NCBI GenBank assembly: GCA_965645245.1
Contig: OZ287081.1
Span: 1,798,001-1,862,000, forward strand
Direction: 5' to 3'
DNA from: Massalongia carnosa
Lineage: Eukaryota
DNA: 64,000 bases
Below are positions 22,571 to 50,373 of the stretch, one piece after another. Each line of letters starts with the position of its first letter. Position 1 is the first letter of the stretch. The notes below the pieces were generated by a model. That model was not told the DNA's origin and searched no databases. It was given only the letters and a program-made list of their open reading frames with translations. A program made the position numbers and the translations under genes.

Positions 22571-23129
22571 CAGGCCTTATTGGATTATTTTCAACAAAAG
22601 AATCCCGGCATTGATCAGGGAAGAAAGAATTCTTTGAGAAGCTTCGTCAATGACTTTTCTTTTTGGAAAAAGCTGACCATTGTCAAGAAAGTGATGGATT
22701 CCATATATCAGTTTCAATACATGTCCGAGGCCGAAGAGCATAAACTTTATACCATAGCCAGCACCTGGAATAAGATTCGATCTTATCTATATTCAATGGC
22801 TGCCTGTCAAGGGACTGGATTGGATGGTCAAGCTTTCTAATTGACTGAGTCTATAGCTACAGCTAGGCTAGATTGGCTATTCAAGACGTCGGACAAGGAG
22901 CCAGAACTTTCGAGACTCGACCCCTTCTTTTATATCTGTTCCTCACCTCCTTACCCCTTTGTTTCCTTGATCTTCGATGTCTCCTATTCATCTCCTTTTC
23001 CTAAGTTAATACGAAGACACCTAATGGGGACCGGGTAATTATGGTTTCGAAGATCGGAGGCGGAGCCGTACTTGATCTAACCGCATCGAGAAAGGTTGGA
23101 ACAGCGCGCACTGACTAATGAAGCTGTGG

Positions 23130-23269
23130 TAGGTCCAATGAACCCGCGGTAGGTCCAATGAATCCGCGGTAGTTCCAATGAACCTGCGTTAGGTCCAATG
23201 AACCTGCGTTAGGTCCAATAAACCTGCGTTAGGTCCAATGAACCCGCGGTAGCTCTAATGAACCTGCGG
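23130..23269. repeat. 20-bp tandem array in the Gypsy-1 LTR: 7 units here, 8 at 29392-29551 and 7 at 41803-41942
   Basis: Consensus taggtccaatgaacc(c/t)gcg(g/t), head-to-tail with no spacers. Confidence 0.92.
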
Positions 23270-27814: not shown

Positions 27815-28993
27815 CTAGGCTTTTTCCTGATTGTTATCAGGACCCTCGGGGATGAGATCCATGGTTCGAAGGTGAGTTGATTTTTTATTGGGACAGTCAA
27901 TGGCTGACTTCCCGGGATGCTGGCGTTTGCAATAAAAACAGAGTTTCCAGTCTTCGCAAATCTTCCTAACTCCCTCGGTTTTTAGTGAATGGCCCTTGAC
28001 TGCGGCCATAGCAGAGCTAAGATCCATCGGGTCGCCGACGGGCAGAGGTGCTGGGGGGGTGGAAGAGGAGGGGACAGAAGCAGCTCTGACTGCCGAGGGC
28101 TGATTGGTTGATTGTCCCTTTCGGGACGTTGAGGTGATGGCGGCCGAAGCATTGAGTCCCGCGGTAGTGTTGGAGGATTTAGGGGCGAGGTGACGAATTT
28201 GACGCAGGCCGCGGTCCGTCTCCAACCACATGGTGACGTGTTCATCGAAAGTAATCGGTTGTCGATTGGTACCCGGAACCCGATACATGAGGGCCGCTGA
28301 CTGAGTTGAATAGTTGACGTTTGTCTTCATAGCGTCAATCAGAGAGGCGTCCTCCATTCTCGAACGATCCTTCTTTTGGGAGAACAGGTTATAGTATTCC
28401 TCAAAGCTCATACTGCCCTGTTTCAACGTTTCTCGGAGATATTTTCGAGCATCTTCTTGTTCGTAGGGGTTGCCACAGGCACGACGAAGAGCGAATCGCC
28501 AGTCGGAGAAGGAGGTCAGTGTGCAAAGGCCGTCAACTCGATAGGAGTTCATGAGGTTGTGAGCCTTTTTTCCGATGATTAGTCGATTTTCTGCATACGC
28601 GATTTTAGATTCGTCGGAGGGATAGCGATCATTGTTTATATGCATTCGCTGAATGAGGCTTTGTTCCCAGGCGTCCAGTCGAGCTTCGTCCCCGTCGTAT
28701 TCCGGAATATCTGGGAGCTTTTCTGAACGTGGTTCGGGGTTCCTGGCTAGGAGTAGCTTCATCAGGGCAGCTATCTGCGGATCCAAGGATGGGGCGAGAG
28801 CTGGGTTGAGAGTCGAGACGGGGGGATCGGAAGCGGACGGGGATGGGGTTTTGGCAGCGGCGCGAAGCTGAGCTAATTCGTTCGACATGGCTTCCATTTC
28901 GTTCAAGAACTGTTGAGGGTTGGATTGAAGACGTTCCTGAACAAATCTCACACGCTCGTCCTGATGAGGGGGGTTTTCTTCCAGAGAAGACAT
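27815..28993 (-). CDS. Gypsy-1 gag polyprotein
   Basis: [18 protein letters not shown] and zinc knuckle [16 protein letters not shown]. Confidence 0.85.
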
Positions 28994-31900
28994 GGCTGGG
29001 TTGAAAAAGGAATGGATGGAGAAAAGTGCTATGGAAGGCACTTTTTAAGGGATAGGTCCGACGTAATGTCAAGGGACTGGATTGGATGGTCAAGCTTTCT
29101 AATTGACTGAGTCTATAGCTACAGCTAGGCTAGATTGGCTATTCAAGACGTCGGACAAGGAGCCAGAACTTTCGAGACTCGACCCCTTCTTTTATATCTG
29201 TTCCTCACCTCCTTACCCCTTTGTTTCCTTGATCTTCGATGTCTCCTATTCATCTCCTTTTCCTAAGTTAATACGAAGACACCTAATGGGGACCGGGTAA
29301 TTATGGTTTCGAAGATCGGAGGCGGAGCCGTACTTGATCTAACCGCATCGAGAAAGGTTGGAACAGCGCGCACTGACTAATGAAGCTGTGGTAGGTCCAA
29401 TGAACCCGCGGTAGGTCCAATGAATCCGCGGTAGTTCCAATGAACCTGCGTTAGGTCCAATGAACCTGCGTTAGGTCCAATGAACCTGCGTTAGGTCCAA
29501 TAAACCTGCGTTAGGTCCAATGAACCCGCGGTAGCTCTAATGAACCTGCGGTACGGTAGGTAGAGACAGGATAGAGGGGGCAACTAGGGATAAGGCCGAG
29601 ATCCTTTTGGTTCGAAGCCGTTTCATGACACTGCCAATGAAGACGACGAGACGGATTTGAATCACATTGCTCAGGTGATTTGGGAAGACAGATATCACAG
29701 TCAGATTACAGAGCTTCATGTGGTAGCAGCTCTTTTGCTTCCTCAGAATCATGCTATAAAGGTGATTGGCGTATCTACGGAGCCGACATTTGCTCCGCTA
29801 ATGCATAGATTTTTCAATCAACATTTGACTAGTGCAGAGGCAGCTACTGCCATGAAGCAATGGCTCGCATTTCACGATCAAGAAGATGGCTTTCATACAA
29901 GCTCCGAATGCTGGACGTATCAAATGGATCCGGAGCTGTTTTGGACATTCAGCAGAAATTTTGCATCAACCCTTAGCAGCTTAGCCAGAAAGGTGATAAA
30001 ACTTCCTGGTAATTCGGTATTGGCCGAAAGAAGCTGGTCGGTAATGAATCTGATCATGAATAAAACGCGCAATTCCATGAGCTCGATAAGCGTAGATAAA
30101 CTCATGTTTATCTACATGAATGAGCGTACCCTCAACCGACCTGGGGATATCAAAAGAAGTTACAATTTGCTGGCATCGACATTGACGAAAGCGATCTATG
30201 TGAAATGGAAGACAGATTGCTGCAGGATGAAATTGTCATTCAGGAGTCCTTGACGTCATCGAAACGTCCGGCCAGTCAAGAAATAAGAGGTGATTCAGCA
30301 AGATCATAGGTTAAATAAGTAGAAATACATACAATTAATTGTATGACGATGACCGGCAAAATTACGTACTTTTTAAGTTTACTATTTGCTGACTTTTCCC
30401 CGCTTTTCCCCCTTTCCGCACCTCCCTACCCACCCCCTCCCCCCCTGTAAATAATCCATGAAAGTTTCACTCGACAGTGAAAGTTTCGCCCGATCGGGTT
30501 AGGCAAACTTTCAGAGATCTTTTCAAATCGGAGCCCTAGCGATGGGGCAACGAACGGATGACTCATCGAGATGTGCGCGCTTGGCTCCCCCGGGGTGAGA
30601 CTGTCCGATTGTGGAAGGTTCCATTCCGAAAGTGGGTAGCACGATTACATCACATGCACCTGTCAAGCTGATACGTTTTCTGACGCTTTTCAAGTTAAAG
30701 CATTTCAAATCAACGTATGATCTAAGTATCTTAATAAGTTCAAGAATGTCTTCATCCGTAGTCTCACAAAACAATTCTTCAAGCTTTCCGCAGCAGGGCA
30801 CGGTCGATTGGGTCACGTTTTACAACTCAACAGTGCATTGCACAGTGGCTGTCCTTGCAAGGCTATCAAAAGCAGGCCTAGACCAGTACACGATTCATGT
30901 GGGACGTGCGATATGCTCCAATTTCTCCCTTGGACCACAGTCTCAGGAACGCGTTATCGCCGCTATTCAACGACTCAGAAAATATGGTTCCTACGATCGG
31001 GTCATTTGGTTTGGGTTCGGAATCAAATAAGTTTTAACAGATCTTTCGGAGACAGAAGAAGGTCTGACATTACTGGCATTGACTGCTTCACTTTCCGTAA
31101 CATATGACGCCTTGTTTACTGCACAAGTTCTTCGAGAACTGTGCTTATTGGGTAAACCAAAAGAGGCACTCACACCAGCTTTGCGGCAGTGGAGAATCCT
31201 GATTGATCTTTACGCAGGAATCTTGACATCAGTTGATTTCATCCATGTTCTCAGTGGTTTTCATCGTCTCGCGTTACCGTACATCGGTAACAGCTCGAAG
31301 CTAGCCAATGGAACGACAGCTGCTTCAAATCTAGCGATTGCTATATTAGCTTTAGGTAGGGTATCAAAAGAAGACATACATTCTGTGACTATTCTAGGTG
31401 GAATGGATTGTGTATGGCTTGCAGCTTTTGCAGACTGGATTCTGTTACTGGACGTCGGACTTCTTGACCCCACCTCTTCGCCATTATATCGTTCGCGGAA
31501 GGGAGTTTGTGGAGCGCCTCAAGTAATTTTCAGATTATGCGAAGAGAGAGACTTCCCAATGAATAGAGACTTATTGGCTAGTAGAAGAACTTTGATTCAG
31601 AATGGTCAAACTCTTTTCTGTCATATAGATGAAGAGCAGAAAAGGTCTTCGCGATTCCGCGCAACGTGGGAAACTATCTTGCGGGACACGTTTCCAGACG
31701 CAATCGACCTGCTCACGCAAGAAAAAACGAACCATGGGTTAGCACGTTATCTGTATTGTGTATCCAGTCTAGAGAAATTTGAGATTTCAAGATCGCGATT
31801 TGTCATATGAAAAAAGCTTTCTTTTTGAATGCAATCCAGTGGATCCGCTACTCTGGACGCGAAGGGAAAGCAGAAGCCAGAGTTTTCTCGAATTTGCTGC

Positions 31901-32169
31901 AAATCGATTGCCTGAGCTTTAAACCTGCCTTCAAGTCGATTTCTCATCGATGCCTTCCAGCAATCTCGCAACTTATGGTGAAGACGCCATAAAAAGAATT
32001 GCAAGTGTGTGTCCTTGTTACGATCATCAAGGATTACAGAAAAGTGTCCAACGGAGCCCATTATGTTTGAATCTTGGCGCAGACTATTCTATTGTATCTA
32101 TGGATTGCGGTTGCGTCAGAAATCGATGATGACGTGTGTCCTTCTATCAACGGGTTGATACTACTTTAT

Positions 32170-34311
32170 CCCTTCGTCTGGCAATTTGGCAGCCACCTTA
32201 AATAGGCTTAGTGAGATACCGTAGGGCTGAGTCGCGAACTTCAAAACATTCTCCCCTTTTTTTGTAAATAAGAAGGTAAACATCAGTTGAAAATCATTAA
32301 AACATCTACAATTTCTTTAGAATAATCATGAGAGGCATTGAGATAGAAGTTCCTGACCAATCAGCCGCTTTGCCCCCCTCAATTCTGAAAGAACAGGCCA
32401 AAAAGAATAAACCCAGCGTACAAAGCATAATTGACTCCATGCCCCCTCCGTCATCAAATTATTGTCCAATTTCGATCCCATTTCGAAAACCACAGCCGGA
32501 CGAGACGTTGCGCTTGATTAATTAGACTCCTTTCAGTTTATTCTGCCTCTTCTATAGCTTTGAAATGCTTGAAACCATAGCTAAAAACACCAATCATAAA
32601 GCGAAAAAGAAGTATGCCCTAAACGACATCAAGAGACGTCAATGGCATGACACCTCTTCTTCTGAAGTAGGAGCTTTTCTGGGAATTCTGTTATATATGG
32701 GGTATACACTGATGCCACGTCTTACTGACTATTGGAACACGTCTCCTAAATTTGCCATACATGACATGGTGATTCAAGCCATGAGTCTTCGAAGATGGGA
32801 GCAACTCAAGCGAGTTTTGAAGATATCCAACCCCGACGAAAATGAGATCATTGATACTCGAGGCCCTGATTGGTGGAAAAAGCTGGAACCATTGGCCACA
32901 GACTTTCGAAAAGCATTAAAGAAATACTGGATTCCTGGAAGTTATGTGTCAGTTGACGAGCAATTGATTTTATTCAGGGGTAGGAGCTGCCATACTATGC
33001 AAATAGCCACCAAGGCGGCTGGTGTAGGCTTCAAAATCTATAGTTTATATCAGGAAAATTATCTTTTTGACTTCTTATTTACCTCCAAGGGGAGTAGAAA
33101 AGGCCTCAATTTGCATCGTACTAATTGCAAGACAGGTGTCCAAAATTAGTGAGTTAAAAACGCCAGGACAATAGAAATTTCCGACAACCAAATGGGATTT
33201 GTCTCCTTCCTCCCTAGTCGTCATTCAACTGGCGCGAAGTTTACCGTCTGATGAAGGCTTGAAATACGTCATCTTTCTGGACAACTTCTTCACAAATACG
33301 AAGCTATTCAAAGCTCTGAAAACCATTGGAATTGGTGCCTGTGGGACGGCTAAATCTGGATGCGGTTTTCCTGTTGATCTTCTACGTCTGAGGGTTGCAG
33401 CCACCAAGAATAAGAACTGGGGAAAGAAGGCATTGATGACGGTACCTGCAAATAAAAGTAAAAAAGCAAACATTGATGACGGGGACATTCTGTGTATGAC
33501 ATGGGTGGATTTAAACACCGTGCAATTCATGACCACGGTTCATACAATTGAGGATTTGAAGACTTCTTTCTACAAGAAATCCCGTCTACGTCGTAGAATT
33601 CCTGCAAAGTCCAGAGTCATCGTTGATGATGAAGAAGAAAAGCTTCCATTTCCCATGCCCATCGTGGTATATAACCAGCACATGGACGGGTCGGATGGGA
33701 ATGCTCAGCAAAGAGCATATTATTTACCTCAAAGATCTGATCGTCGCTACTGGTAGTCAATTTTCATCTTTCTTCTGGATGCAGCCGTTCTAAATGCCTT
33801 CAAATTGTGGAGAATTCTGTATCCGAATTCAACACTCAGCCATTTGGACTTTCAAAAAGAAATAGTAAATACCCTACTATCCAATCAAGCCGGTGCCCTA
33901 CGGAAACGTCCGACAGATGTCATAGTTACTACTAATCAAGACGTTAATAAAGACGTCGAGTCAACTTGCAAATGGGAGCATTTGAATAAGAAGGACTATT
34001 GTTTGGCCTGCAAAAGGCAAGTGCCAAGACTGAAACGACGCCGACCACTTGCGGAAATTGATGAAAGTTGCACCAGAAGACGACGTGCAAGTCAGACCAG
34101 ATGGCAATATAAGAGCTGTGGACCATGTTGCAAAAAGGAGGCATGTTGGGAAATTTTACATAGATCATGAGGGGTGATTGAGGTGTTGTACCTATTATCG
34201 TTGAAAAGGGAAAATCTGATTGGCCAGATTAAAGTTATTAGTCATTACCCTGAGAAGGCGCGTGTAAAATTGAATATTACCTAAATGGCTGCCAAATTGC
34301 CATACGAAGGG
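32170..34311 (+). mobile_element. piggyBac-like DNA transposon with degenerate transposase (32328-34170)
   Basis: 26-bp TIR CCCTTCGT(C/A)TGGCAATTTGGCAGCCA; VSVDEQLILFRGR, FLDNFFT and YNQHMDGSD (DDD triad); Cys-rich C-terminus; in-frame stops. Confidence 0.93.
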
Positions 34312-35453
34312 ATAGACGTCAAGCATTAGCCGTCGACCCAAACCGTAGCTTCCTTACCGACTCAACACTAATGACATCTGGTGAAGATTTCGTATTAAGT
34401 TTAGTGTCATGGTGCGAATAAGGATAATCTAGGAAAGGTAGTCACAAGAAGGTTGCTAAGATTGCTAAGCGATACCCCCGACATTTAGCGTCGCGGGAGG
34501 TAGCGCATTGGGTTTAGCGGGAAGCTAACCTCATCAAGGTTAGTAAAGGGATCAAGGAGTTATAAGAAAATCTCTGCAGCAATTGCTGCTTTCTTCTTTG
34601 TGTTCGTCTTGTTTATTTAGCATAGCTATTAGCTAGCCATCAAGACCATCATCACCACCACTTGAGTAGGCCTTCTATTGCCCACCCGTTACATTACGAA
34701 CACCTCCCCCATACCTCAAGTGGTCCTTCGTCCCCAGGTCCTTCTCCCGAAAAGGATGGCCTCCAGCTTCTCCGCCGAGGCATCTACCTCTCTCTCCGAA
34801 GGCCAGACCTTCGATCTTCCCCCTCCGGACTTCAAAAACGAAGCCTCTCTTGCCCCTCACGTGATCACGCCTGATGCTTGGAGCCACTCGATCCAGAAAT
34901 TTCCCCACGAGTGGTACAATTTTTCTATTCAAGCTGCCAATCAGATCACGTCCCTCTCGAGCTCCCTGGACATAAAAACGAGTCAGTGCGAGTCTTTAGA
35001 ATCGGAGCGTGATCAAATCCGCCGTCAGCTGCGTGACTCCAATGACGAGCTGATCGCGGCTCGAGCCTTGATCATCAGCCTTCGCGGACACCCATCCCCC
35101 ATCAGCCACGCAGACTCCCGATCGGAGAGACTCCCGGATATTCCCAAGTTCTCGGGAAAGAAGGAGGATTTACGTTCCTGGACAACCCAACTGCACTTGA
35201 AACTTTTCGTCAATAAAGACCGCTTCACTGGAGAAAAATCAGGACTCATCTATGCTATCAGCCGATTGGAGGGGCGTGCGCTCTCCCAGGTACAACCGTA
35301 TGTCAAGTCACAGCACGAAATCTCTCTGCCGGATGTACCGTCCCTCCTGGTGCTGTTGGAACGTGCATTCGGGGACCCTGACCGAAAGGCCACCGCGCAG
35401 CGTGAGCTGCGTGCCCTTCGTCAGGCAAATCGAGAGTTCCATGTGTACTTAGC

Positions 35454-35673
35454 TGTCAGCCAGTTTAGTGGTCAAGCAGTAAGCGATATGTAGCTCGGAT
35501 ACGGTAATCTATTAACCGAATCCCAACATTCTAGTAACTGAGAGAATGGGTGCAAAATCCTTTCAATGCAAGCAATCATCACCTCAATTCCAAGTGTCAA
35601 TTTCAAGTGTCTATCTAAAACGTAAATCATTCTCCAATCACCAAGAGCTTAGATCAATAAATCAAGTTCAATA
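35454..35673. mobile_element. 220-bp solo LTR inserted in Gypsy-2 gag
   Basis: Starts TGTCA and ends CAATA (probably a mutated CA end); exact TSD TTAGC; removal restores YLADFQRIAP. Confidence 0.85.
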
Positions 35674-36074
35674 TTAGCAGATTTCCAACGCATCGCCCCG
35701 GACACCAATTTTGATGAGGAAGCTCAACGCGCTGCCCTGCAACAAGGTATCAGCGAAGAACTTCAACAGCTAATGTTAACGCAGCTGATCCCGGAGGACC
35801 TCAACGAGCTGATCTCGTTACTACAACGGCTAGATACTCGCCAGCGCAATGTCAATGCCCTGCTCCGGAAGCCCTACTCGCCCCGGTCCGCCCCATCTTC
35901 TTCTGATGCGGGGACCACACTTCGTAACCCTCCGTCTGGGGGGGTTGCCCTACCCCGAACCGTCTCCCCCGCCGCTGCCGCTCCCGCCTCGCCTCCAGAC
36001 GCCATGGACCTCTCCGCCTTCTCTCGAGGCAAGTTATCCTCGGCGGAAGTAACTCGTCGTATGAACGAGGGGCT

Positions 36075-39000
36075 GTGCCGTTACTGCGGGGAGTCCGGGC
36101 ACTTTGCGGCCAACTGTCCCAAACTGGCACGAGGGAAGAAACCCAAGCCGTCACGACTCAACGAGTCTACCCTTGCGGAGTCGACGGAAAACGCTGTGTC
36201 TTCGAGCTAAGTCGCTCTCGAAGACCGACGGAAGGATTTCCTGTGTCAATTTCGGCTTTTTCCATATCAGAAGACTCGTTAGATGGTAGACATTTCGTCG
36301 TATCCATAGAACTCTCTGTAGAAAATCGCGTTTTACACACACATGCATTAATAGATTGCGGCGCTTCTGGCTATGCATTCATTGATTCGTCCTTCGCGCA
36401 AAGAAATTCCCTGCCTCTCACCCCCCTTGTCCGCCCTCGCGTTCTCGAAGTTGTGGACGGCCGACCAGCCGCGGCTGGTATGCTCACACACCTGGCCAAG
36501 TTGAAGATGAACGTCAACGGGCATCACGAGCACGGCTCATTCCTTGTGACCCAGTTGGGTCACTATCCGGTAGTCCTGGGAGTCAAATGGCTTCAAATTC
36601 ACGACCCTTTCGTCAGCTGGTCTCGAAATACTCTGACCTTCTCGTCCTCGTATTGTCGTCTGGAGTGTTTAGAGAATAAACACGTCCCTCTTGTTATTCC
36701 TGGCCTTTCTGATCTTTCCGAAGAGTCTCCTCCCCCGGAGTCTGCTTCCTCAGTGCGTCTTGACCCTCTTGAAATCCGTGAGAACAAGGTCTCTCACGCG
36801 AATCCTGAATTCTTGAAACCCTCCGAGTTTATTGAACATATCGAGTTTATTGAACATCCCGAGCCCATGATCCGAGTCCCGAGTTCACGTCTTGAACCCC
36901 CGAAAATCACCAAGTACACTGAACACTCTCAGCCTCCGAGTCTCGTCCCAGAACTTAAGAAGTCCAGCGCCTTGCCCATGAAAATCTGTATGATAGGAGC
37001 CGCGCCATTTTCCACCCTGATGAAGGATCGAAAGAACGAAATCTTCACTGCGTCCTTGTACGAGATCGAAAAAGCCATACAAGCCTTGAAAAACCCGAGC
37101 AACCTCAGCCTTGCAGCCGCATCTCTGGCTGATGTGGCCAAATCCTTGAAACCTAAGAGATTCATCGATCCTGCTACCGTAGTACCCGAGGAATTTCATG
37201 ATCTCCTGGACGTGTTCTCCAAACAAGAGGCCGATAAACTGCCTCCGCATCGTTCATACGATCACAAGATCGTGTTGATGGAGGGCGCAGTTCCTTCTTC
37301 GGGTCCTCTATACAAGATGTCAGCTCCCGAGCTTTTAGTTTTGCAGAAATATCTCAAGGAAAACTTAGCCAAGGGATTCATTCGAGCCAGTTCCTCTCCT
37401 TGTTCCTCGCCGGTATTGTTCGCACGAAAGCCTTCAGGCGGACTGCGATTCTGTGTCGATTACAGAGCCCTGAACGCGATCACCGTAAAGAATCGCTACC
37501 CAATACCCCTGATTCAGGAGACCCTCGATAGGCTCGCAAAAGCCGTTATATTCTCGAAATTTGATATTGTAGCGGCTTTCAATAAGCTGCGCATGCAGAA
37601 GGGACAGGAATGGATGACGGCCTTCAAAACAAGATATGGGCTTTTCGAGTATGATGTTCTTCCTTTCGGATTGTCTGGAGGTCCTGGATCCTTTCAGCAT
37701 TACATTAACGATGTACTCCGCGAATATCTAGACGCCTTTTGCACCGCGTACATCGATGACATCTTGATTTACAGTAAATTGAGAAAAGAACACAGTATCC
37801 ACGTAAGAAAAGTTTTAACAGCTCTACGAGAAGCGGGGTTGCAACTGGACATTGAGAAATGCGAGTTCTTCGTCACCGAGACAACATATTTGGGATTGAT
37901 TATCTCCAATAAAGGAATAAGAATGGATCCTCGCAAAGTTCAAACCATCAAGGACTGGATCACGCCCAAGAATGTTAAAGATATTCAAGCCTTTGTAGGA
38001 TTCGCGAACTTCTATCGCCGTTTCGTCAAAAACTTCTCCGCCATTGCCGCACCCCTGATAAAGCTGACTCGAAAGAGTGTGATCTTTTCTTGGAATCAGG
38101 AATGCGAGACCGCATTTCAAAGATTAAAGGACGCGTTCATGAGCGACCTTGTTCTGATGCATTTTGATCCTGAGAAAAAGATCGTTGTAGAAGTTGACGC
38201 CTCGGATTGGGTAGTGGGGGGAGTGCTCTCGCAACATGACGACGAAGGAATTCTAAGACCTGTGGCATTCTTCTCAAAGAAACACTCACCAGCGGAAGTA
38301 AATTATGAGATTTATGATAAAGAGCTTATGGCTATCGTTCGTGCCTTTGAGGAATGGAGAGCTGAACTCGAAGGAGCCGCATTTCCAATACAAGTAATTT
38401 CCGATCATAAGAATCTGGAATATTTCATGACAACGAAGCAATTGAGTAGAAGGCAAGCACGCTGGTCCGAATATCTTTCTCGTTTTGATTTTCAGATTGT
38501 GTACCGCCCAGGGAAGAGTGGCGGAAAGCCCGATGCCCTTACCAGAAGGTCTCAAGACCTACCTGAGGGGGGGGATGATCCACGAGTGAAGATCCAACAT
38601 CAAACGGTCTTGAAACCTCGAAATCTTGAACTTCTAGCGAACGGGTTAGCAAAGGAATTTTCGGAAGAGAACGATATTGAATCAGGTTCAGATCAAGAGG
38701 AAGTCAAGACCCTGGAAGAACTATGGCAGGAGGCTCTGAAAAATGATCCTTTCCCTGTCAAGATACTGAACCTGTTGCGGTCAGGAGCAAGGCACTCCAA
38801 GGTTATCTCGTTAGCGGAATGCACCGAAATCGACGGTCGATTACACTATCGAGAGAAAATGTTCGTTCCCGACTCTCATGCTTTGAAAATGAGGCTCTGC
38901 GAGTCTGTTCATGATAGTCCAGTGGCAGGTCACCCCGGCCGAGCCAAGACCTTTGATCTTTTACAGCGCCACTATTACTGGCCTCGATTTTATCAGTTCG

Positions 39001-40166
39001 TAGCGAAGTATGTACAGCACTGTCAAGTATGCGCACGAAGCAAATCATCTCGTCAAGGGAAAATGGTAGTTCTCAGACCACTGCCCATTCCCGAGCGTCG
39101 CTGGCAAGATATCTCAATGGACTTTGTCACTGGACTGCCGGAAAGCAATGGATTCGACGCTATACTGGTCGTGATCGATCGTCTGTCGAAAAGACGTCAC
39201 TTCTCTTCATGTCTCACTACAATCAACGCTCAAGAATTGGCTGAGCTCTTTCTTCGGGATATCTGGAAACCCCATGGACTACCAAGCACCATTGTATCAG
39301 ATCGAGGAGTGCTTTTCGTGGCGGAGTTTTGGAAAAAGCTGTGTCAAGGGTTGGGAATCAAGAGTCTTCTGTCGACAGCCTTCCATCCAGAAACAGATGG
39401 GCAGACGGAGCGAGTAAATGCCTCCATGGAACAATACCTTCGCAGTTACACGGATTATCTTCAGGATGACTGGGCAAATTGGTTGCCCATGGCGGAATTT
39501 ACAGGAAACAATGTCGTGTCCGAAACGACTGGGTGCAGCCCCTTTCTTGCGGAGATGGGATACCACCCGCGTATGGGATTTGAATCAATGGAACCCTCTA
39601 GGTCCCCGGCCAGTTTGAACGCAGGGGAATTCGCCAAGAAAATGCAAGATATCACGATCGTGCTGCAAGAGGAAATGAGATTCGCGCAAGCACGATACGA
39701 AGCAGGGGCCAACGAAAATCGCGTGCCAGCACCGGTTTATCAAGTAGGAGACGCCGTATGGCTAAGCACAAAAAACATACGTACACAACGACCCGCTCGA
39801 AAGCTCGATTGGAAGAAACTAGGCCCATTCAGGATATCTAATGTGGTAAGCAAGTATGCGTATCGACTCGATCTCCCCATCGGCATGAAGATTCATCCCG
39901 TGTTTCATGTATCTCTTCTCTCGCCCGTGCCTCAAGATCCTCACCCTGATCACGTTCCACCTCCTCCTCCACCAGTCGAAGTTGACGGCGAAGAGGAGTA
40001 TGAAGTGGAGGATATCCTCGATTCTAAGAAGTTCCGGAATCGCTTGAAGTATCTGGTGCAGTGGATCGGTTGGAACGACCCCACCTGGGAGTACGCAGAG
40101 TACGTCATCAATGCCAACGAAAGAGTAGCAGACTTTCACCGACGATATCCAGAAAAGCCCCGATAA
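36075..40166 (+). CDS. Gypsy-2 pol (protease, RT, RNase H, integrase, chromodomain), uninterrupted; overlaps gag, so probably expressed by frameshifting
   Basis: LIDCGASG, AYIDDILIYS, VEVDASD, GHPG..C..C, FHPETDGQTER and EYEVEDILDS..YLVQWIGW. Confidence 0.95.
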   Translation: MPLLRGVRALCGQLSQTGTREETQAVTTQRVYPCGVDGKRCVFELSRSRRPTEGFPVSISAFSISEDSLDGRHFVVSIELSVENRVLHTHALIDCGASGYAFIDSSFAQRNSLPLTPLVRPRVLEVVDGRPAAAGMLTHLAKLKMNVNGHHEHGSFLVTQLGHYPVVLGVKWLQIHDPFVSWSRNTLTFSSSYCRLECLENKHVPLVIPGLSDLSEESPPPESASSVRLDPLEIRENKVSHANPEFLKPSEFIEHIEFIEHPEPMIRVPSSRLEPPKITKYTEHSQPPSLVPELKKSSALPMKICMIGAAPFSTLMKDRKNEIFTASLYEIEKAIQALKNPSNLSLAAASLADVAKSLKPKRFIDPATVVPEEFHDLLDVFSKQEADKLPPHRSYDHKIVLMEGAVPSSGPLYKMSAPELLVLQKYLKENLAKGFIRASSSPCSSPVLFARKPSGGLRFCVDYRALNAITVKNRYPIPLIQETLDRLAKAVIFSKFDIVAAFNKLRMQKGQEWMTAFKTRYGLFEYDVLPFGLSGGPGSFQHYINDVLREYLDAFCTAYIDDILIYSKLRKEHSIHVRKVLTALREAGLQLDIEKCEFFVTETTYLGLIISNKGIRMDPRKVQTIKDWITPKNVKDIQAFVGFANFYRRFVKNFSAIAAPLIKLTRKSVIFSWNQECETAFQRLKDAFMSDLVLMHFDPEKKIVVEVDASDWVVGGVLSQHDDEGILRPVAFFSKKHSPAEVNYEIYDKELMAIVRAFEEWRAELEGAAFPIQVISDHKNLEYFMTTKQLSRRQARWSEYLSRFDFQIVYRPGKSGGKPDALTRRSQDLPEGGDDPRVKIQHQTVLKPRNLELLANGLAKEFSEENDIESGSDQEEVKTLEELWQEALKNDPFPVKILNLLRSGARHSKVISLAECTEIDGRLHYREKMFVPDSHALKMRLCESVHDSPVAGHPGRAKTFDLLQRHYYWPRFYQFVAKYVQHCQVCARSKSSRQGKMVVLRPLPIPERRWQDISMDFVTGLPESNGFDAILVVIDRLSKRRHFSSCLTTINAQELAELFLRDIWKPHGLPSTIVSDRGVLFVAEFWKKLCQGLGIKSLLSTAFHPETDGQTERVNASMEQYLRSYTDYLQDDWANWLPMAEFTGNNVVSETTGCSPFLAEMGYHPRMGFESMEPSRSPASLNAGEFAKKMQDITIVLQEEMRFAQARYEAGANENRVPAPVYQVGDAVWLSTKNIRTQRPARKLDWKKLGPFRISNVVSKYAYRLDLPIGMKIHPVFHVSLLSPVPQDPHPDHVPPPPPPVEVDGEEEYEVEDILDSKKFRNRLKYLVQWIGWNDPTWEYAEYVINANERVADFHRRYPEKPR

Positions 40167-41485
40167 CTCACACCAACCATGAAGCAATTATGCCTGCGTA
40201 GAATCAGGCCTGAAGGAGGGAGCTACTGTCATGGTGCGAATAAGGATAATCTAGGAAAGGTAGTCACAAGAAGGTTGCTAAGATTGCTAAGCGATACCCC
40301 CGACATTTAGCGTCGCGGGAGGTAGCGCATTGGGTTTAGCGGGAAGCTAACCTCATCAAGGTTAGTAAAGGGATCAAGGAGTTATAAGAAAATCTCTGCA
40401 GCAATTGCTGCTTTCTTCTTTGTGTTCGTCTTGTTTATTTAGCATAGCTATTAGCTAGCCATCAAGACCATCATCACCACCACTTGAGTAGGCCTTCTAT
40501 TGCCACCCGTTACATTTAGTCTTCGCTGTTTTCTCAGGCTCTCGTTTTATTGAAACGTCTACAATGTCTTCGACGATTCAGACGAACAATGAAAGCGCTT
40601 TTCTTGCCTTATCAGGAGGCGGAATCTGTATGTATCGCAAAATCTTGGAAGACCCAACTCTACCGCCCGGTTTGATCTTTAATTTCCGAGTTCTTCCCGG
40701 TGGTATTGTCCATCACGGAGCTCAGTTCAAAGCGGTTAAGAGCTTATATAAGGATGACAGATATTATTCCGAGAAGGCAAAGTCGAATGTATTTCTCCTC
40801 GATGAGAGTATTCAGACTTCTGTAACAACTGTGGTAGAAGAGACTGATGATGCCTTTCTCTTAAACGTGTTTTATCGGATTCTGTATTCCACCAGAATTA
40901 CTGATACCTATTCCACCTTTCTGAATCCCGAGATTTTGCTTGACATATTGCGTGAAATAATAGAGATGTGGGCCTGTTCAGGTGGCTGCCAACCATTAAA
41001 TAATTTAGAAAGGGTCTCTACAGAACATTCGTTATGGAGAAACTCTTCTGCTTGGACGATCAAGGTCGAACCAAATTCCATGAAGATAACTCAAGATATT
41101 CTGAATCAAGTGCGAGAGCCCGCTGAGAAATGGATGTTGACGTGTTCAAGATCTCTTACCCCGTACAAGTTCAATAGAATATTCACTACGGAAAGTGATT
41201 CATTTACGATGATGGTTAACAACCCGTTCATATTATATTTATACTTGAACGATCGACCTTCAGAATATATTGCTCTTTTCCCTTACATGACGTGTCTTTC
41301 TTGTTCAATCGAGCTTGGATATTGGACAAAATGCTACTCACATTTTTTTTCCCATTATGTGGACACAATAACAGACATCGCAGATTTAATAACACCTGGT
41401 AACAATACCTCGATGATCAGGTGGGAGTTAACAACACCCGCAAAGGAACCGTATCAAGGAAATGATAACGTTCATCCAAGTCACC

Positions 41486-42021
41486 TGTCAAGGGACTAGA
41501 TTGGATAGTCAAGCTTTCTAATTGACTGAGTCTATAGCTACAGCTAGGCTAGATTGGCTATTCAAGACATCGGACAAGGAGCCAGAACTTTCGAGACTCG
41601 ACCCCTTCTTTTATATCTGTTCCTCACCTCTTTACCCCTTTGTTTCCTTGATCTTCGATGTCTCCTCCTTTTCCTAAGTTAATACGAAGACACCTAATGG
41701 GGACCGGGTAATTATGGTTTCGAAGATCGGAGGCGGAGCCGTACTCGATCTAACCGCATCGAGAAAGGTTGGAACAGCGGGTACTGACCAATGAAGCTGT
41801 GGTAGGTCTAATGAACCTGCGGTAGGTCCAATGAACCCGCGGTAGGTCCAATGAACCCTCGGTAGTTCCAATGAACCTGCGTTGAGTCCAATGAACCTGC
41901 GTTAGGTCCAGTGAACCCGCGGTAGCTCCAATGAACCTGCTGTACGGTAGGTAGGGACAGGATAGAGGGGACAACTAGGGATAAGGCCGAGATCCTTTTG
42001 GTTCGAAGCCGTTTCATGACA
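41486..42021 (-). mobile_element. Solo LTR of the Gypsy-1 family
   Basis: Slightly diverged copy of 22805-23348; flanks gtcacc / atcacc form an imperfect duplication. Confidence 0.93.
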
Positions 42022-42179
42022 ATCACCTTTTGTGTGTACTCGGTAGCCAGCCATTCAATAAGTGCAATACTTGCTAACCGAGTGACACTTATATCAGTGG
42101 TGATATTGGCAGGAAACCTACCAATTAGTGTGGTCTAATCGGTTAACACATATATATCCTCTACTGCGCTAGTATATAT

Positions 42180-43128
42180 TGTTATGGAATTACCTCTCAC
42201 CTTCCCACGTTTCCTGATCGGGTTAGTATTTAACAGGCTTTCTTGCCGTGAAACCTGCCCTGCATGTTGAATAGAACCGTGGCCCGTTATTCCGAACTAT
42301 CCTGAAACCTCACTCCATGTATTCAGACTTTCTTCCGCTGCCTTCAGTGCACTCCCAAACTCCTATATCCCGAACCCAATCTCAACGTCTCCACTATCCA
42401 AGCCTACGACTGGGATTGCCTAGCAGAGAGAGATTGCTTCGGCAAGGAAAAAGGCGGAGCAGGTCAAAGCGATCATGGTTAGGAAATTAGAACAGGAACA
42501 GAGATAAGGGCAAGTCAAGAATAGGGGAGTTGGAAGCCATGGCTATAAAACCTATGTGGTTTCTCAAGTGTTTGGAGCTCTTCGTCGGACGTCTTGTATA
42601 CTATCCCTAGACCTAGCTTTCTAATAGTAACTCTTGCATATCTCCCTATCTAGACCTTGTCCGTGACACCTATGTAAGATAGTCGTCACGCAACCCTCTA
42701 GTAGCTATAGGAACGAAATCGAAAGTGCCTACGTGTTCCATCTACGATTGCCCTAGGCGGTCCCGAGTGCCGAGTGTCATGGAGTGACTGGGCACCTGCC
42801 AGTTAGTTCATTGAACCAACCTTAGCTGCTTAAACGAAGCACTAGCCGGCTAGCCGATCCGAAAGGAACTAAGCTTAATCCGGTTCAGTCAGGGCAAAGG
42901 TAAGTGTTCCGACTGTCAATAGTGTCATAGCGATAGTTTCATGCCAGGGACTTGGGGGAAATTGGATTAACGGCTGGATTGGGACTAGTTCCGTTCGCCA
43001 GAGTCTTATACTCGCCCACGTTGGATTTCTGTTTCTTTTCTCCTTGTCGAACGTCTTGTCTACCTAGCTAGACAATCAAGTAATACGTTTGCACCGCCTG
43101 AATTCCTACCAGACCTCACACCGTGACA
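42180..43128. mobile_element. Probable LTR remnants (one or two TG..CA units: about 42180-42668 and 42673-43120)
   Basis: TGTTA..TGACA and TGTAAG..CTCACA ends, TATA-like ctataaaa and repeated ccgtgacacc; no clean TSD. Confidence 0.4.
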
Positions 43129-43166
43129 CCGAGGTCGTGCCGTGTAGAATCGTGAAAGAATTCGAT

Positions 43167-43205
43167 ATTTATCGTATTTATCGTATTTATCGTATTTATC
43201 GTATT
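43167..43205. repeat. (ATTTATCGT)4 minisatellite
   Basis: Directly visible. Confidence 0.9.
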
Positions 43206-44027
43206 GAAACGGGGAGACCGTCTCCCAGCAGGCATTCACTACTGGAAGAGGGGATCCACAGGGGCTACACAACGTGATGGTCACAATAGAGGTACAAATA
43301 GGTAGGGTCGGGTCAAAGGGTAGACTAAATGCTACCCTTTTGAAGTGCTTGATCATTGATCTATATAGGATAGGACAATCCATAACCTAAGCTCTTCTTC
43401 CATACCTTGCCCATACTACCTGGTATTTTCGGACTCCGAAATACTTCGGATACCGAAAGACACGGGTAGATAAGACTAGGCAGGTGAGCTAGGGGAGGTG
43501 AGGCGAGGCGAGGGGATACTTCGTGTACTACGAAAACACCTCCATAATAAGTTAAGTCCCCACACTATGCCTAACTGGGTTAGGCGGGACCTTATTGTCT
43601 TGGTGGTTGTTTTGGCTGTACGTATCCCACATAGCCACATAGGCCAGTCTTACGTTCAACGAACGCATACTAGGCCTACCCTATTACACGTATTTATCAA
43701 TTTAATAATTTAATTATTCTGGTATTTCTTATTTATTTACAAATAATAAACCATTGATCACATGAAAAATTCTAGTAATTATGATCTTTGTGACACGAAG
43801 ATCGTGTCAGGTCACGCACGTCCTGACATAAGTGAATCGGTAGTTATAACCGATCTCCGATCTCTGACTAGGACACGGCTCGTGTTCGTAATCTTCTTTT
43901 TATTGTACCAATCATAATCACTGTAATTAAATCAACGGACTGGTGACCCTAAGAAGTAGGGCTATAGGATAAAGACCGGATCGCCCACTTCTTTCGAGGG
44001 GTCACTGATCAGTTTATTGATTTACTA

Positions 44028-46631
44028 CTCTCTAATCATCGGCTCGCTTAGTGGGATCCGACTCGGAGGCCGTCGCCTCCTAGTCGGGGAAAGCGATTTT
44101 CATCCGGAAAGCGATTTGCATCAATTCAAACTGAAATTTTTGACCATTTTTCACCTTTTACCCTCAACTACATTGATCAATCATTACTTAATATCGTAAA
44201 AAGCTTGAAAGCATCGTCGTCGTCATCGTTGTCATCAAAATTATCCCCCCCCCTCAATTTTCGATCCTTTATTATCGCATTTGCAACTTTCGAAAAGAGG
44301 TTTTCAACCTTCCTTCGTACCATGGAAAATAATGCCTCAATCTTGGTTTCCACTCTCAGCCCCATGGAAAGATTGGAAGAAGCGAAGCAGTTTCTGATTG
44401 ATCATCCCGAAGAAAGCAAGGCTGCTGCGTCAAAAATCTACAATTTTAACGTTAAAACGTTTACGTCTTATGTTCGTCGTAATCCGAAAGAAGGACAGAA
44501 AAAAGATGGGAAAAAAAAGGGGGGAGAAAATCAGATACTGAAAGAGCATGAAGCTAGGGCTTTAGATGGATTCATTAAATCCTTATTGATACATGGAATT
44601 CCACCTACGCATCACATGGCTTTTAATGCAATTGTAAGTCTGAGAAAGGCTCATAAATTAAAAGCTCCATCAAGACGATTGTTTCGGTCTTGGTGGAAAC
44701 GTAGCAATTTACACAAGATTAAAACCAAACCATTACCAATGATTTGCTTTGAAGCCGCTGAAGAATCAGATGTGATCAAATGGTTTGATGGCTACAAAGA
44801 GGTATTGAGAGAATTGAAAATCAGAAGAAGACGAAACATTCAAAACTTTGATGAAGCTGGTTTTCGAATTGGATGCATGAAGGGTCAGGAAATCTATGTT
44901 CCTATGGAAATCAAGCAATTCTACGCCGTCAGCCCGGAGAATCGCAGATCTGCGACGGTCATTGAGACGATCAATACTGCTGGCGACTATCCCCTCCCCC
45001 CATGATCATCATACAGGGTCAGGAAATCATGGCGACGTGGTTTTCGGAGGATTTGCCGGTAGGCACGCGTATTGTGCCTTCCGATAGTGGTTTCACATCT
45101 GATAAGATAGCAATTGAATATTTGAAGCATCTCATTCAAAATTCGGATGTAGGACCTAATGCAGATTGGAAATTGCTCCTGATGGATAATAATGGGAGTC
45201 ACGTTACTCCTGAATTTGTACTTCTGGCCAATGAAAACCACATTCGTCCCTACCCACTAATTCCACATTTGACTCATTACATGCAGCCATTGGATGTCGG
45301 CGTATTTCAGCCCTATAAGCACTGGCATCAACAGGCTATTGAGGAGAATGTTGCATCGTCATTTGTCGAGTATTCCCTGACTCGGTTTCTTCAGGATTTG
45401 ATCAAAATTAGAAACCAGACATTCAAAGCTTCTACAATCCGACATGCATTTGAAAATTCGGGAATGTGGCCGGTCAATCCAGAAGCATGCATTCGTCGGC
45501 TGAAACAATTCATTCTCAACAATTCTAGTGTGAACAATTCTGATCTGACTGATCAGCCCTTAGTTTCTCTACCTCGTCAAATTCAACCTAGGGATATAGT
45601 CGAAATAGAACATGGATTGCGTCAATGGGGGTCAAAAATTCAAGAATCTATGCAATGGAGTGATCCCGCCCGAGCAGGGGAATTTGATTCTTTTATAGCT
45701 GGTACGAAAGAGATCATTTCGAAGTCTATACTCGGAGAAGCGGAGCTTGAAATGTATCAGCAGTAAAGAACGAATCAGCTAAACAGCAGACGAATATCTC
45801 GTAAAAGATTGAGACCTGAAATCGGATGATTGGGAATAACCGCTGAAGATGCGAAGCAAGCTATAGCCATAAAGCTACAAAAAGATCAGGAAATTGAGAA
45901 GAAAAAGGAGAATAATAACTTCATGAAGCTGTAGAGAACGGAAAGAGACGAAATTCATGTCAAAGGGGTGACTGCTCGAAAAGCAGAAAGGGATCGAGTC
46001 GAACGACTAAAAGAGATGCAGAAAGGGCTCGGTGCTATCTCAGTTGAGATGTATAAGGAGATTCCTGACCCCGAGGGATTATGGAAAGCGACGAATGAGG
46101 TGTGGATAGCTGAGGAAGCGAAAAAAGAAGCCAGAAAGAATCCATCTGCATCTGCTCGTGCCAATGTTGAAGAAAACGTCACATTTATTGTAGATGAGAC
46201 TGAAGCTAGAAATGGAGGCATTTCGAACATTTCGAACATTCCGGACATTCCAGAAGAAGAAGCATGGCTACGAGTTGATTTTGTGTCTTTCGATCCAGGT
46301 TTCGAATCGGGAGATGCTTCGAATTGTGAGGGGGATGCGGGGTATGCGGGGTATCAGGAAGATCAGAATAATCAGGGTGGTCAGGGTAGTCAAGGGGGTC
46401 AGGGGGGTCAGAGGGATGATTTTAATGACGGCTTTGATGATGACGATGCCTTTCGAGCTTTGTATGAAATTTAGAATCAATAAATCAATGTGGTTGAGGG
46501 TAAAAGGTGAAAAATGGTCAGAATTTCAGTTTGAATGGATGCAAATCGCTTTCCGAATGCAAATCGCTTTCCCCGACTAGGAGGCGACGGCCTCCGAGTC
46601 GGATCCCAATAAGCGAGCCGACGATTATTCG
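44028..46631 (+). mobile_element. pogo/Fot1-like DNA transposon with degenerate transposase (44322-46474)
   Basis: Long TIRs (about 44033-44177 vs 46476-46627) and TA at both flanks; NFDEAGF, LLLMDNNGSH and HYMQPLDVGVFQPYK; frameshift near 45000 and later stops. Confidence 0.93.
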
Positions 46632-47430: not shown

Positions 47431-48252
47431 ATGGCTTATTTTCATATCGAAGGTTCAATTTGCCCTTCGTCTGAGGTGCTCCAAGCACAGAAAGAGAATG
47501 TCTGTGGCCAGAAAAATCATTCGTTCTATCCGTCAGCGTCACCTGTCCCATGGGTCTGACTCCTCCTAATATCATACAGATACACAGACAACGGCGGCTC
47601 AATCCTAGGCATCAGCAGCGGTAACTTCGCGGTACTTGCCGGCGACACTCGCTCTACCAATGGCTACTCCATCAACTCTCGTTGTGAGCCTAAAGTCTTT
47701 CGTATCGGCTCGGACGACCGCATCGTCCTCGCCCTTGTTGGTTTCGCCGCAGACGGCAAAGAGCTCAAGGAACGTCTTGACACGATGTGCAACATGTATC
47801 AATTTAAACATGGAAAATCCATCAGCGTGACCGCGTGCGCTCACCGACTCTCCACGTTGCTGTATGCTAAGCGGTTCTTCCCTTATCAGGTGCAAGCTAT
47901 TCTCGCGGGACTGGATGAAGAGGGGAATGGAGCTTTGTACAGCTATGATCCCGCAGGCAGCTATAAAAGAGATCAATGTGCAGCAGCCGGGGCTGCCGCG
48001 AGTTTGATCATGCCGTTCCTCGATAATCAAGTGACTTTCAATAACCAATATGTTCCAGGCAACGGAGCTGGGGCCACGGAGTTGGAGTCGAGGCCCGAGG
48101 AGCTGTGGTCCAGAGATGCTGTGATAGAATTGGTCATGGATGCGTTTGATAATGCTACGGAGAGACATATAGAAGTTGGTGATGGCCTGCAACTTATGGT
48201 TCTTACCGAAAATGGGATACAGGAGATCTTCACACCTCTGAAAAGAGATTAG
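47431..48252 (+). CDS. PRE7: 20S proteasome subunit beta6 (Pre7/PSMB1 family), divergent, 257 aa; exons 47431-47531 and 47580-48252
   Basis: FYP|YTDNGGS, LAGDTR, GFAADG, KRFFPY, SLIMPFLDNQV, ERHIEVGDGL and C-terminal LKRD; a 48-nt GT..AG intron with ctaat branch point gives an uninterrupted frame. Confidence 0.95.
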
Positions 48253-49669
48253 GGCTTCCACGGGTAAGTGGTTGAGGAATGATGACGTGAAAAGTCAATT
48301 GACTGGCGAAATGTAGATCCTAATACCGTTTTATCTGGCAGATAAAATGCTGGTTTTATGGGCGAATTGGTCGTCGAGAGGTCGTTTGGGACAAGATTTT
48401 ATGGGTTAACAGGTCCTATGAATGGAGGGGGTCTTCTGGGGGGGAGGGGGCTGAGACAGCGCCTAGAAACAGCAAAAGCCTTCTCCGAAGACTTTCGTGG
48501 ATCCTTTTATCAAGAAATGGAGTAGGTAATGAAGGAAGAATTGAAAAGTGAAGTGAATCATCCGAATGCTGTTTGTGGTGATGAGAAGACTGAAAATCAA
48601 AGAGAATGATGAAATGAATGCAGATGAGAATTGATTTTCGGATCAAATTGACTTCAGGAAATGGTATACAGATTTTGATGAAATTTGTATATAAATTCAT
48701 GTACTTCTTCGAACTGAAAAGGACCGGGCTCCCATCAATGATGAGATTTAGGTTCTATGACACAAGAGGGTTTTCAAGCTTGGTGGGGTTTTATCTGTCA
48801 AATAATACGATATACTATATACGACAATCCCACTTCCACTATATTAACCGGAATCCTATCGGAAAGTCAACTCTCAAAATCAAGCTTCACGACCGTACTG
48901 CTGTAGACGCGATGAGTCGCAGTACATGCAAGTTCCACTTAGTGCGCCCAAGTCCCGGTGAACCTTTCAATCTCTGCCGATATATAAGAGAGAGCAATCC
49001 GGAACTCCGTGAATCACGTTGGCCTTTGCTCGATGGCAGCCGTGGAGGACGAGAGGTAAACTGGTTCTTTGGGAGAAGGAAAAATCCGTAGCTCGACCGT
49101 AATTCTTTCGTAGGAATTTGCAATTGAACCCTCAAAAGTGGCACGCCGAGAGATACGCGCCGTCTTGTATCCCGAGAGATGTCTCACTTTGATCCTCCTT
49201 TGTCTCGTTTGATTGAATGTTTTTGAAAGGTCAGATTCGTGCGAGTCCGATGGTGTCGAGTCCGCGCGCAACCTTTTTATGGTTGTGTCCACAAATCGCA
49301 ATGGCAATCGAAGCGTGAGCTGATGCTCAAGAACTGGCCAAGTGCGCTCCACTATTTGGGAGCCTAGATAATGATCCTCGATGAAGTTGCTCACCGCGTT
49401 GAGGTATTTGACTCCAACGGGGACGATATGCGCGCCAGGGTGAGTTATTCTGATGTTGTCAAACCTGAATGTGGTCGATTCTCATCGCCGATCCTCGACC
49501 CCCTGTCGCGGCAGATGCCGCTAAGCTACGCCATTTCTTCCACACCTTTACCCCTCAATTTGCCGGGGTTAATATCGTTGCTGCCATGACCCCTTTTCCC
49601 TTCTATATAGGTAGCTAGATGTGGGCATTTCCCACATACAGAACACAGCCTTTTTCATCCTTCCTGAAT

Positions 49670-50373
49670 TCATGTGAAAGGTTGACAGATGTATCTATCA
49701 CCACCGATCTGTGCATCCTCAACAGCTTGCGCCATCTTGAGTCCAACAACTGGGTCCCAGCAGCCGCAGAAATGGATAAAAGGTGTGGAGATAAGTGGAT
49801 TTTTGTAGAATGCAGTGTACTTCTTCCTTTGCCCCATCAGAGCACCATAGGTGATTCCAAATTTTAGTTGGGGATGATCTAGAATCTCGAGCGACCGAGG
49901 ATATTGAAAACTTTCAGGGAACTCCCCTGGGCGCGCCTGAACGCTTCTCTGCGTGGCTCACCTTCCAGAAGGGAAGCCACCATTACTGCTAGGAGTGCAC
50001 CTTGTGAGAAGCCCAAGATTCCATCGAACGGCCCCTCTGTTCTCAGGATATCTGCCAACGCGTCCAAACTTTCGACAAACCCTTTAGGTGGGTCCCGGGT
50101 ATCGTGCAGCGTGTGCCAAGCGTATGCATCGATATCGTCGGGGTCGGGTTCGTCATTAAGGTAAGGGTTTTTATCGCTGGCAGGTGGCTCTGACTGTCGT
50201 GAGCTGACACCCAGCGCTTTTTCGCTGGGTCGGAGTCGAACTACGCCTGTAGGGAAATAGACTTGGGCGCCGGGGAAAATGTTTTCGAGGTGAGATTGTA
50301 GCTTGCGAATTTTTCGTTGAAATCCAGGTCCGCTTTGGGTGTAGCCATGGAGGGCCAGAATTTTTACAGCCAT
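49670..50373 (-). pseudogene. FSH1/LovG-family serine hydrolase (esterase), frameshifted and 3'-truncated
   Basis: ILALHGYTQSG and EGPFDGILGFSQGA; after a 1-nt frameshift near 49918 the frame continues HPQLKFGITYG...FIHFCGCWDPVV and stops at 49670 before the catalytic His motif. Confidence 0.85.

Follow-up and report, generated by a model that had tools for sequence, protein, structure and literature searches.

A proteasome β6 gene, probably of the InpE-type resistance lineage, beside a broken inpF-like hydrolase gene and without synthetase genes in 64 kb of a lichen fungus

The proteasome β6 gene at positions 47431-48252 of the 64,000-nucleotide stretch of Massalongia carnosa DNA analysed here (the window) is intact and probably belongs to the InpE-type lineage of second β6 subunits, which accompanies fellutamide-family (lipopeptide aldehyde) NRPS clusters. 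Genome mining guided by resistance genes relies on duplicated drug targets, for which β6/InpE is the fungal textbook case: InpE (AN3493) is a β6 paralogue and the resistance gene of the fellutamide B cluster of Aspergillus nidulans. A housekeeping β6 gene presumably resides elsewhere in this organism. The state of the locus is unusual: it retains the resistance gene, carries a partner hydrolase gene with polymorphic lesions and has no synthetase genes within the 64 kb. That second β6 genes serve as resistance genes, that they are present in Lecanoromycetes and that cluster-less orphans exist is already in print (PMC10734572; PMC6517689).

The β6 gene was predicted from the sequence as two exons on the plus strand. 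Its parts, and the segment on which a preliminary description of this DNA had focused, are as follows:

47431..47531, plus strand: β6 exon 1, encoding the propeptide and ending in ...KNHSFY plus two bases of a Pro codon (read from the sequence, translated)
47532..47579, plus strand: predicted intron of 48 nt, GT...AG (read from the sequence)
47580..48252, plus strand: β6 exon 2, encoding the mature subunit, with stop codon (open frame, Pfam, match to solved structure)
47878..47991, plus strand: flagged segment, residues q100-137 (FPYQVQAILAG ... YDPAGSYKRDQCAAAG), carrying the equivalents of yeast Pro95, Tyr96, Asp114, Pro115 and Val116

Once the 48-nt intron is removed, the spliced CDS measures 774 nt (257 codons plus stop). 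The exon junction ...HSFYP / YTDNGG agrees with that of well-modelled relatives (KEHSFYP in Lepraria, KQHSFYP in Clarireedia and KEHGFYP in the canonical Bisporella copy), and the open frame at 47560-48252 (plus strand) spans nearly the entire proteasome β subunit. Residue numbers q1-q223 refer to the exon-2 translation of 47581-48252 (P0001). The protein matches the Pfam family Proteasome (PF00227, E = 2.7e-35) and, as its best solved counterpart, yeast β6 (Pre7/C5; E = 3.4e-74, residues 1-223), which identifies it as a β6 subunit of the Pre7/PSMB1 type. Because the sequence matches solved β6 chains, the fold of the window protein can be regarded as fixed. Fold and family are thus common to yeast Pre7/C5, human PSMB1 and the window protein.

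The preliminary description had reported two unusual motifs at 47878-47991, which are indeed present and correspond exactly to residues q100-137 of the translation. It had also stated how filamentous ascomycetes usually read here, and correctly so: among 237 β6 proteins (the matches listed, namely the best 120 per homology search, with the window protein included), 209 combine FPYY with VGSYERE, 11 are near-canonical and 17, the window protein among them, are variant. Alignment with these Pezizomycotina sequences bore out all five substitutions it had named. Tyr q103, Val q125, Glu q129, Glu q131 and Arg q134, found respectively in 219, 217, 220, 219 and 219 of the 220 canonical rows, are replaced by Gln, Ala, Lys, Asp and Ala. 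The window protein hence differs from housekeeping β6, whose FPYY...VGSYEREQCR residues it does not carry and from which it groups apart. The flanking stretches SLIMPFLDNQV and ERHIEVGDG are conserved, again as described.

In contrast, the claim that these changes cluster in the segment did not hold. Taking as conserved every site at which at least 90% of the canonical copies agree, we counted 143 such sites, 22 of which differ in the window protein; 5 of 30 are changed inside the segment versus 17 of 113 outside (Fisher p = 0.78). Identity to the canonical consensus is higher within the segment (30/38) than outside it (124/185). By a simple count, the ligand-contact positions derived from the literature (q101, 102, 105, 123, 124, 125, 128 and 129) are not enriched in changes either, with three of eight altered compared with about 31% overall. 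Divergence is therefore roughly uniform along the protein, the very pattern that the preliminary description had named as speaking against its own proposal of targeted remodelling; moreover, just one of the four named groove residues discussed below is changed. Its further inference, namely inhibitor resistance or altered specificity as opposed to decay, proved right in kind, as the gene belongs to a paralogue lineage and is not decaying, whereas the clustering on which that inference had been based fell away. Divergence spread across the whole protein would also suit a different explanation, in which the window gene is the sole housekeeping β6 of this fungus, has drifted in this lichen lineage and has acquired lineage-specific residues unrelated to inhibitors. 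The phylogenetic data make this explanation very improbable.

In a maximum-likelihood tree of 55 rows, a branch supported at 100/99 separates the 17 variants from all other rows. Since the variants had been chosen by their motifs, the tree was rebuilt minus columns q85-137, and the variant split persisted (SH-aLRT 98, quick method). When a yeast-like and a Pezizomycete outgroup were added, a group of the variants and three other extra copies received 94/91 support, and all canonical rows fell on the opposite side (85/79). The window protein accordingly groups with cluster-borne or extra copies and not with housekeeping β6. One of the three additional copies is the extra β6 of Aspergillus homomorphus, which may belong beside the variants, a placement on a very long branch (2.63) of which we are unsure. 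A. nidulans InpE was not among the rows of the lineage trees: it is absent from the best 120 matches of each homology search, and it could not be identified among the 50%-identity representatives, where the only named entries are the A. homomorphus extra copy and Tricharina.

Two named species contain both types of β6. Lecanora helva encodes a variant (P0008, 77% identical to the window protein) together with a canonical copy (P0205), and Bisporella sp. PMI_857 a variant (P0013) together with a canonical copy (P0163); both canonical copies group with their taxonomic kin. The drifted-housekeeping explanation is at odds with the canonical copy in Lecanora helva, the closest named species with a variant. 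It is equally at odds with the housekeeping β6 of lichens (Usnea, Bacidia, Xanthoria, Trapelia and others), which is canonical and lies apart from the variants, and with the Leotiomycetes, in which variants likewise occur beside canonical copies. The coexistence of the paralogue lineage with canonical β6 in these two species, together with a relative that adjoins NRPS and FSH1 genes, supports the earlier view that the window gene is neither decayed nor an ordinary β6. Compared with the variant of metagenome locus L001 or the canonical gene of L004, the window gene yields dN values of 0.20-0.27, with dS saturated.

Among the listed matches, the canonical β6 proteins nearest to the variants come from Chaetothyriales (Exophiala, Capronia and Rhinocladiella; P0021, P0032, P0037 and P0039; 67-69%), and the lichens' own canonical copies show slightly lower similarity to the variant lineage (about 66%). 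Three Chaetothyriales rows also stand next to the variants in the tree built without the segment (98). This closeness could be a hint at the origin of the lineage or a rate artefact. Four metagenome loci (L006, L007, L008 and L011), at 45-49% identity, encode a β6 with the motif YDPVGSYSK[DE]GERRAA, which resembles the Pezizomycete protein of Tricharina praecox (P0240). These loci have no neighbouring frame of 1000 aa or longer and are probably ordinary β6 genes of another class. Two fragments, P0241 (171 aa) and P0260 (136 aa), share FPYQLQ and continue with YDPAGSYQRE and YDPVGCYEKR, respectively. Both sit on long branches beside the A. homomorphus extra copy, a grouping that therefore points to more diverse extra β6 copies in environmental data.

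The connection of this lineage to fellutamide biosynthesis runs through Bisporella sp., for which a complete fellutamide cluster has been reported, with the β6 gene on scaffold_63 between two NRPS genes; the report lists an inpE homologue of 253 aa that is 55% identical to InpE, an inpF homologue of 406 aa and an inpA homologue of 1528 aa (PMC10734572). We infer that P0013 is this cluster copy, because it measures 252 aa compared with the listed 253 aa and lies on a 264-kb contig, with the canonical P0163 on a 2-Mb contig. Like InpE, the window protein is of the β6 type, and its lineage contains the Bisporella copy listed as an inpE homologue, through which the likeness to InpE was judged.

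Genomic context for a further relative is provided by metagenome locus L001 (20.7 kb of a 104-kb contig), which harbours a variant β6 with FPFQVQ and YDPAGCYERS. About 1 kb upstream of β6, in divergent orientation, lies a frame of 1511 aa with Condensation, AMP-binding, PP-binding and terminal reductase domains (a C-A-T-R NRPS), and a second AMP-binding gene is located farther on, at 1659-3322 of the 20.7 kb. Directly downstream of β6, and convergent with it, a 408-aa FSH1 hydrolase is encoded. The order β6 then FSH1 is also found in L002, which has the coding sequence of L001 and a flank too short to judge NRPS genes. Judged by its domains, the terminal reductase of L001 would fit the release of a peptide aldehyde. 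Because the L001 and Bisporella genes agree in length and position, InpF appears to be an FSH1-family protein.

This gene neighbourhood also bears on the possibility that the lineage represents a specialised β6 isoform of an alternative proteasome with changed cleavage preference or assembly and a physiological role, by analogy to the tissue-specific subunits of vertebrates. Such an isoform could have an altered specificity, as the changed residues line the substrate channel; besides, the window contains no biosynthetic gene, and orphan extra copies have been described in aspergilli that lack the cluster (PMC6517689). However, NRPS genes adjoin the relatives whose context is visible, that is, L001, the sole distinct locus with enough flank, and the Bisporella gene (PMC10734572), and the conserved partner is the inpF-like hydrolase gene, a member of the cluster. 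We thus regard a physiological isoform as improbable.

Of the window's sequence, 47 kb lie to the left of β6 and 16 kb to its right. A Pfam search of every stop-to-stop frame of 80 aa or more over the 64 kb revealed no domains of NRPS, PKS, acyl-AMP ligases or transporters, and no trace of the L001 NRPS was found in the window by tblastn at E up to 0.01. Within these bounds the β6 gene does not lie in a cluster of two NRPS genes, an acyl-AMP ligase gene and a transporter gene; the FSH1 gene is its only cluster-type neighbour. Compared with the InpE cluster, the window lacks inpA, inpB, inpC, inpD and scpR, and an inpF-like hydrolase gene does lie next to β6. The remaining surroundings include the following features:

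11500..44032, unstranded: transposon-rich tract with two MULE, one DDE_3, two Ty3/Gypsy, one hAT and one piggyBac-like element (Pfam)
12023-12604, minus strand, and 14023-14604, plus strand: MULE transposase frames with identical Pfam scores, in opposite orientation
23404-29129, minus strand: fragmented Ty3/Gypsy element
32526-33753: piggyBac-like transposase in two frames
35928-40166, plus strand: Ty3/Gypsy element with an uninterrupted pol frame of 1412 aa
44033..46627, unstranded: DDE_1 (pogo/Fot-like) transposon (Pfam E = 4.8e-14; inverted ends of about 216 bp)
51092-52003: AFT/FAR1-type DNA-binding domain in a frame that lies right of the hydrolase gene

The transposon tract, in which the DDE_3 and hAT elements are fragments, separates β6 from housekeeping genes on the left and has a GC content of 0.42-0.50, lower than the approximately 0.52-0.57 of the left gene block. 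The inverted ends of the DDE_1 element (46413-46627 versus 44247-44033) are 87% identical, and the element ends about 800 bp upstream of the β6 start codon. To the right, the AFT/FAR1-type frame is followed by long frames without a Pfam family (376, 577 and 602 aa, in 50805-54118 and 58246-63050). These have no match in the flank of L001 and may be transposon-derived or lineage-specific genes.

Convergent with β6, we located the hydrolase gene and its two lesions:

49014..50373 (approximate), minus strand: FSH1-family serine hydrolase gene (inpF-like), disrupted, convergent with β6 (Pfam, tblastn)
49924..49926, minus strand: one-base frameshift in the FSH1 gene (tblastn frame change and public contigs)
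49452..49693, unstranded: insertion of a high-copy repeat, about 240 bp long, in the FSH1 gene (skipped by contigs; read depth)

Pfam recognises FSH1 in two separate frames (E = 2.6e-28 and 4.9e-07), leaving profile positions 181-211 unmatched, and a tblastn search with the L001 FSH1 protein returned three pieces of 50-57% identity (50367-49927, 49924-49697 and 49457-49368). Owing to the frameshift and the insertion of about 240 bp, the window allele does not encode an intact FSH1 domain. A 35-nt intron was considered for the frame change and rejected, as the stretch aligns as coding sequence to the L001 FSH1 gene and other alleles are one base longer.

Five public runs from three studies contain this stretch, one of them labelled as a lichen metagenome, and the contigs of four were compared over 47300-50500. 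All four runs contain contigs with an extra T at 49924 or 49926, at about half the depth (two thirds in X5), and in three runs the contigs lack 236-240 bases of the interval 49452-49693. Read depth in this interval is 60-180 times that of the flanks; together with the shorter contigs, this indicates that the repeat is present in high copy and is absent from other forms of the locus. No second copy of the insert was found within the window. Neither of two candidate identities suited it: a MITE is contradicted by the lack of terminal inverted or direct repeats, and for an RNA-derived SINE there was but a sub-threshold snoRNA match (23 bits versus a gathering score of 50). Since public contigs include forms free of either defect, the hydrolase gene of the window is a broken allele, and the gene seems whole in other forms.

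Around β6, the public data resolve into two forms of the locus. The flanks of β6 split into two forms in all four runs; in the intergenic stretch 48611-48874 these are of about equal depth and differ at 15 of 264 positions (about 6%). Two alleles or two nuclei could account for this, as could two copies of the locus, in which case the other copy might still carry NRPS genes. β6 exon 2, by contrast, lies on a single contig (47575-48261) at full depth in X1 and X4. Six of the nine CDS differences from the public contigs that are among those listed are synonymous, including all three within the segment, a ratio of 6:3 that is provisional in view of 63 further differences beyond those listed. At q186 (position 48137) the window encodes Met (ATG), where all four runs have AAG (Lys) and the variant β6 rows shown also have Lys; this Met is either a private change or an assembly error.

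On the basis of these results, the locus looks like a remnant or detached part of a fellutamide-type cluster that has kept its resistance gene, because only this gene and the broken inpF-like hydrolase gene remain, between transposons. Disruption of the inpF-like gene in this allele may signify that the locus is decaying. One could go further and suppose that β6 itself no longer functions, being left over from a destroyed cluster and still free of disabling mutations. The missing NRPS genes, the transposons on both sides, the frameshift and repeat insertion in the adjacent FSH1 gene and the private Met at q186 all agree with this. The β6 gene itself, however, shows signs of constraint: its frame is open and its splice sites are canonical. 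Furthermore, its terminal branch of 0.12 is not longer than those of its sisters (0.06-0.36) and is near the tree median (0.13), the listed coding differences are mainly synonymous, and the CDS forms one full-depth contig amid flanks that diverge. A functionless relic is hence unlikely, slightly more so than a physiological isoform. Retention of an intact resistance-type subunit remains the better account.

How such a subunit might act can be gauged from inhibitor complexes. In published work, β6 Asp114 forms a hydrogen bond to the P3 NH of the inhibitor (PMC2933030), and the acyl tail of fellutamide B sits in a β6 groove made up of Pro95, Tyr96, Pro115 and Val116, a groove that a review credits with nanomolar potency at β5 versus micromolar potency at β1 and β2 (PMC13180746). 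The assertion of the preliminary description that the segment belongs to the β5 inhibitor site is in keeping with these contacts. Yeast positions were mapped by counting along the alignment, P-Y of FFPYY being q101-102 and P-V after the Asp being q124-125. Pro95, Tyr96, Asp114 and Pro115 of the yeast and human subunits are retained in the window protein, so that Val116, replaced by Ala, is the only one of the four named groove residues to differ. Ala at this position (q125) occurs in 14 of 17 variants, compared with a single one of the 220 canonical rows. All 17 variants lack Tyr q103 (replaced by Gln, Met or Ser), as does one canonical row of 220; 16 of the 17 carry Gln at q105 (His to Gln in the window), and 14 show a change from Gln to His at q88. 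The A. homomorphus copy carries His, Gln and Ala at q103, q105 and q125. The yeast/human chimeric β6 used for 'humanized' β5/β6 channels differs from yeast at q96, q97, q105, q106 and q129. Among the papers that our literature search listed, none joins inpE with these residues, which the primary InpE and fellutamide B structure papers may nevertheless discuss.

We propose that the window protein would replace housekeeping β6 beside β5 in the 20S core and so alter a non-catalytic wall of the chymotrypsin-like site. The exchange of Val116 for Ala would shrink the hydrophobic groove for the acyl tail, and the change of the neighbouring Tyr q103 and His q105 to Gln would leave this groove smaller and more polar. 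In addition, replacement of Glu120 by Lys (q129) would reverse a charge in the loop lining S3. Inhibitors would then bind β5 less tightly, and proteolysis would continue, as the catalytic β5 subunit is untouched. Resistance to fellutamide B or other proteasome inhibitors is thereby indirectly supported through the predicted effect of Val116Ala in the tail groove.

An altered β6 that affects the β5 site is known from Plasmodium falciparum. In that species, β6 residues Phe135, Asp153, Ser154, Val155 and Cys159 touch the ligand at the β5 site, and the β6 mutation A117D flips the 156-161 loop of the β5 S3 pocket, lowers inhibitor binding and confers resistance (PMC10721928). If mapped by counting offsets only, these contacts correspond to q105, q123-125 and q129, and A117 to q87, which adjoins q88. 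In both cases a non-catalytic β6 subunit beside β5 is altered, and an effect of the window protein on inhibitors may be envisaged by analogy. The two differ in that A117D is a laboratory-selected point mutation in the sole β6 gene (PMC10721928), whereas the window gene is of a dedicated paralogue type.

Natural counterparts are found among fungi. Lobaria pulmonaria, by the published description of its fellutamide-family cluster (PMC10734572), shares with the window an inpE-type β6 gene in a lichen-forming Lecanoromycete; the cluster is described as keeping NRPS genes and lacking inpF, whereas the window has an inpF-like gene and no NRPS gene. For the orphan extra β6 copies in aspergilli lacking the cluster, protection against the fellutamides of neighbours has been proposed (PMC6517689). 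Of these, the A. homomorphus copy groups with the window lineage (94/91) and has in common with it a non-Tyr residue at q103, Gln at q105 and Ala at q125, but it is 41% identical to the window protein by BLASTP (46% in the MAFFT alignment) and sits on its very long branch. According to a review, inpE is expressed constitutively and is not co-regulated with its cluster (PMC8597713), which makes a stand-alone copy plausible.

A bolder reading, which we offer tentatively and hold to be possible and not probable, is that the resistance subunit has outlived its cluster as stand-alone immunity and that its residue signature is a readable code of insensitivity across three fungal classes. The NRPS genes would have been lost by transposon-driven rearrangement, and the slow-growing lichen fungus would retain the insensitive β6 under purifying selection, possibly for protection from fellutamide-like lipopeptide aldehydes of neighbouring or lichen-inhabiting fungi. 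The proposed signature would comprise loss of Tyr q103, Gln q105, Ala in place of Val116 and often Lys in place of Glu120.

For the β6 family, the comparison of residues amounts to a concrete proposal of how a non-catalytic neighbour may lower the affinity of β5 for inhibitors, namely through Val116Ala and loss of the adjacent Tyr. The locus further indicates that a resistance gene of this kind can occur in a lichen fungus without its biosynthetic partners, at least within 64 kb; for mining pipelines, a duplicated target would then be no marker of a producer. It also bears on how self-resistance genes may become stand-alone resistance genes.
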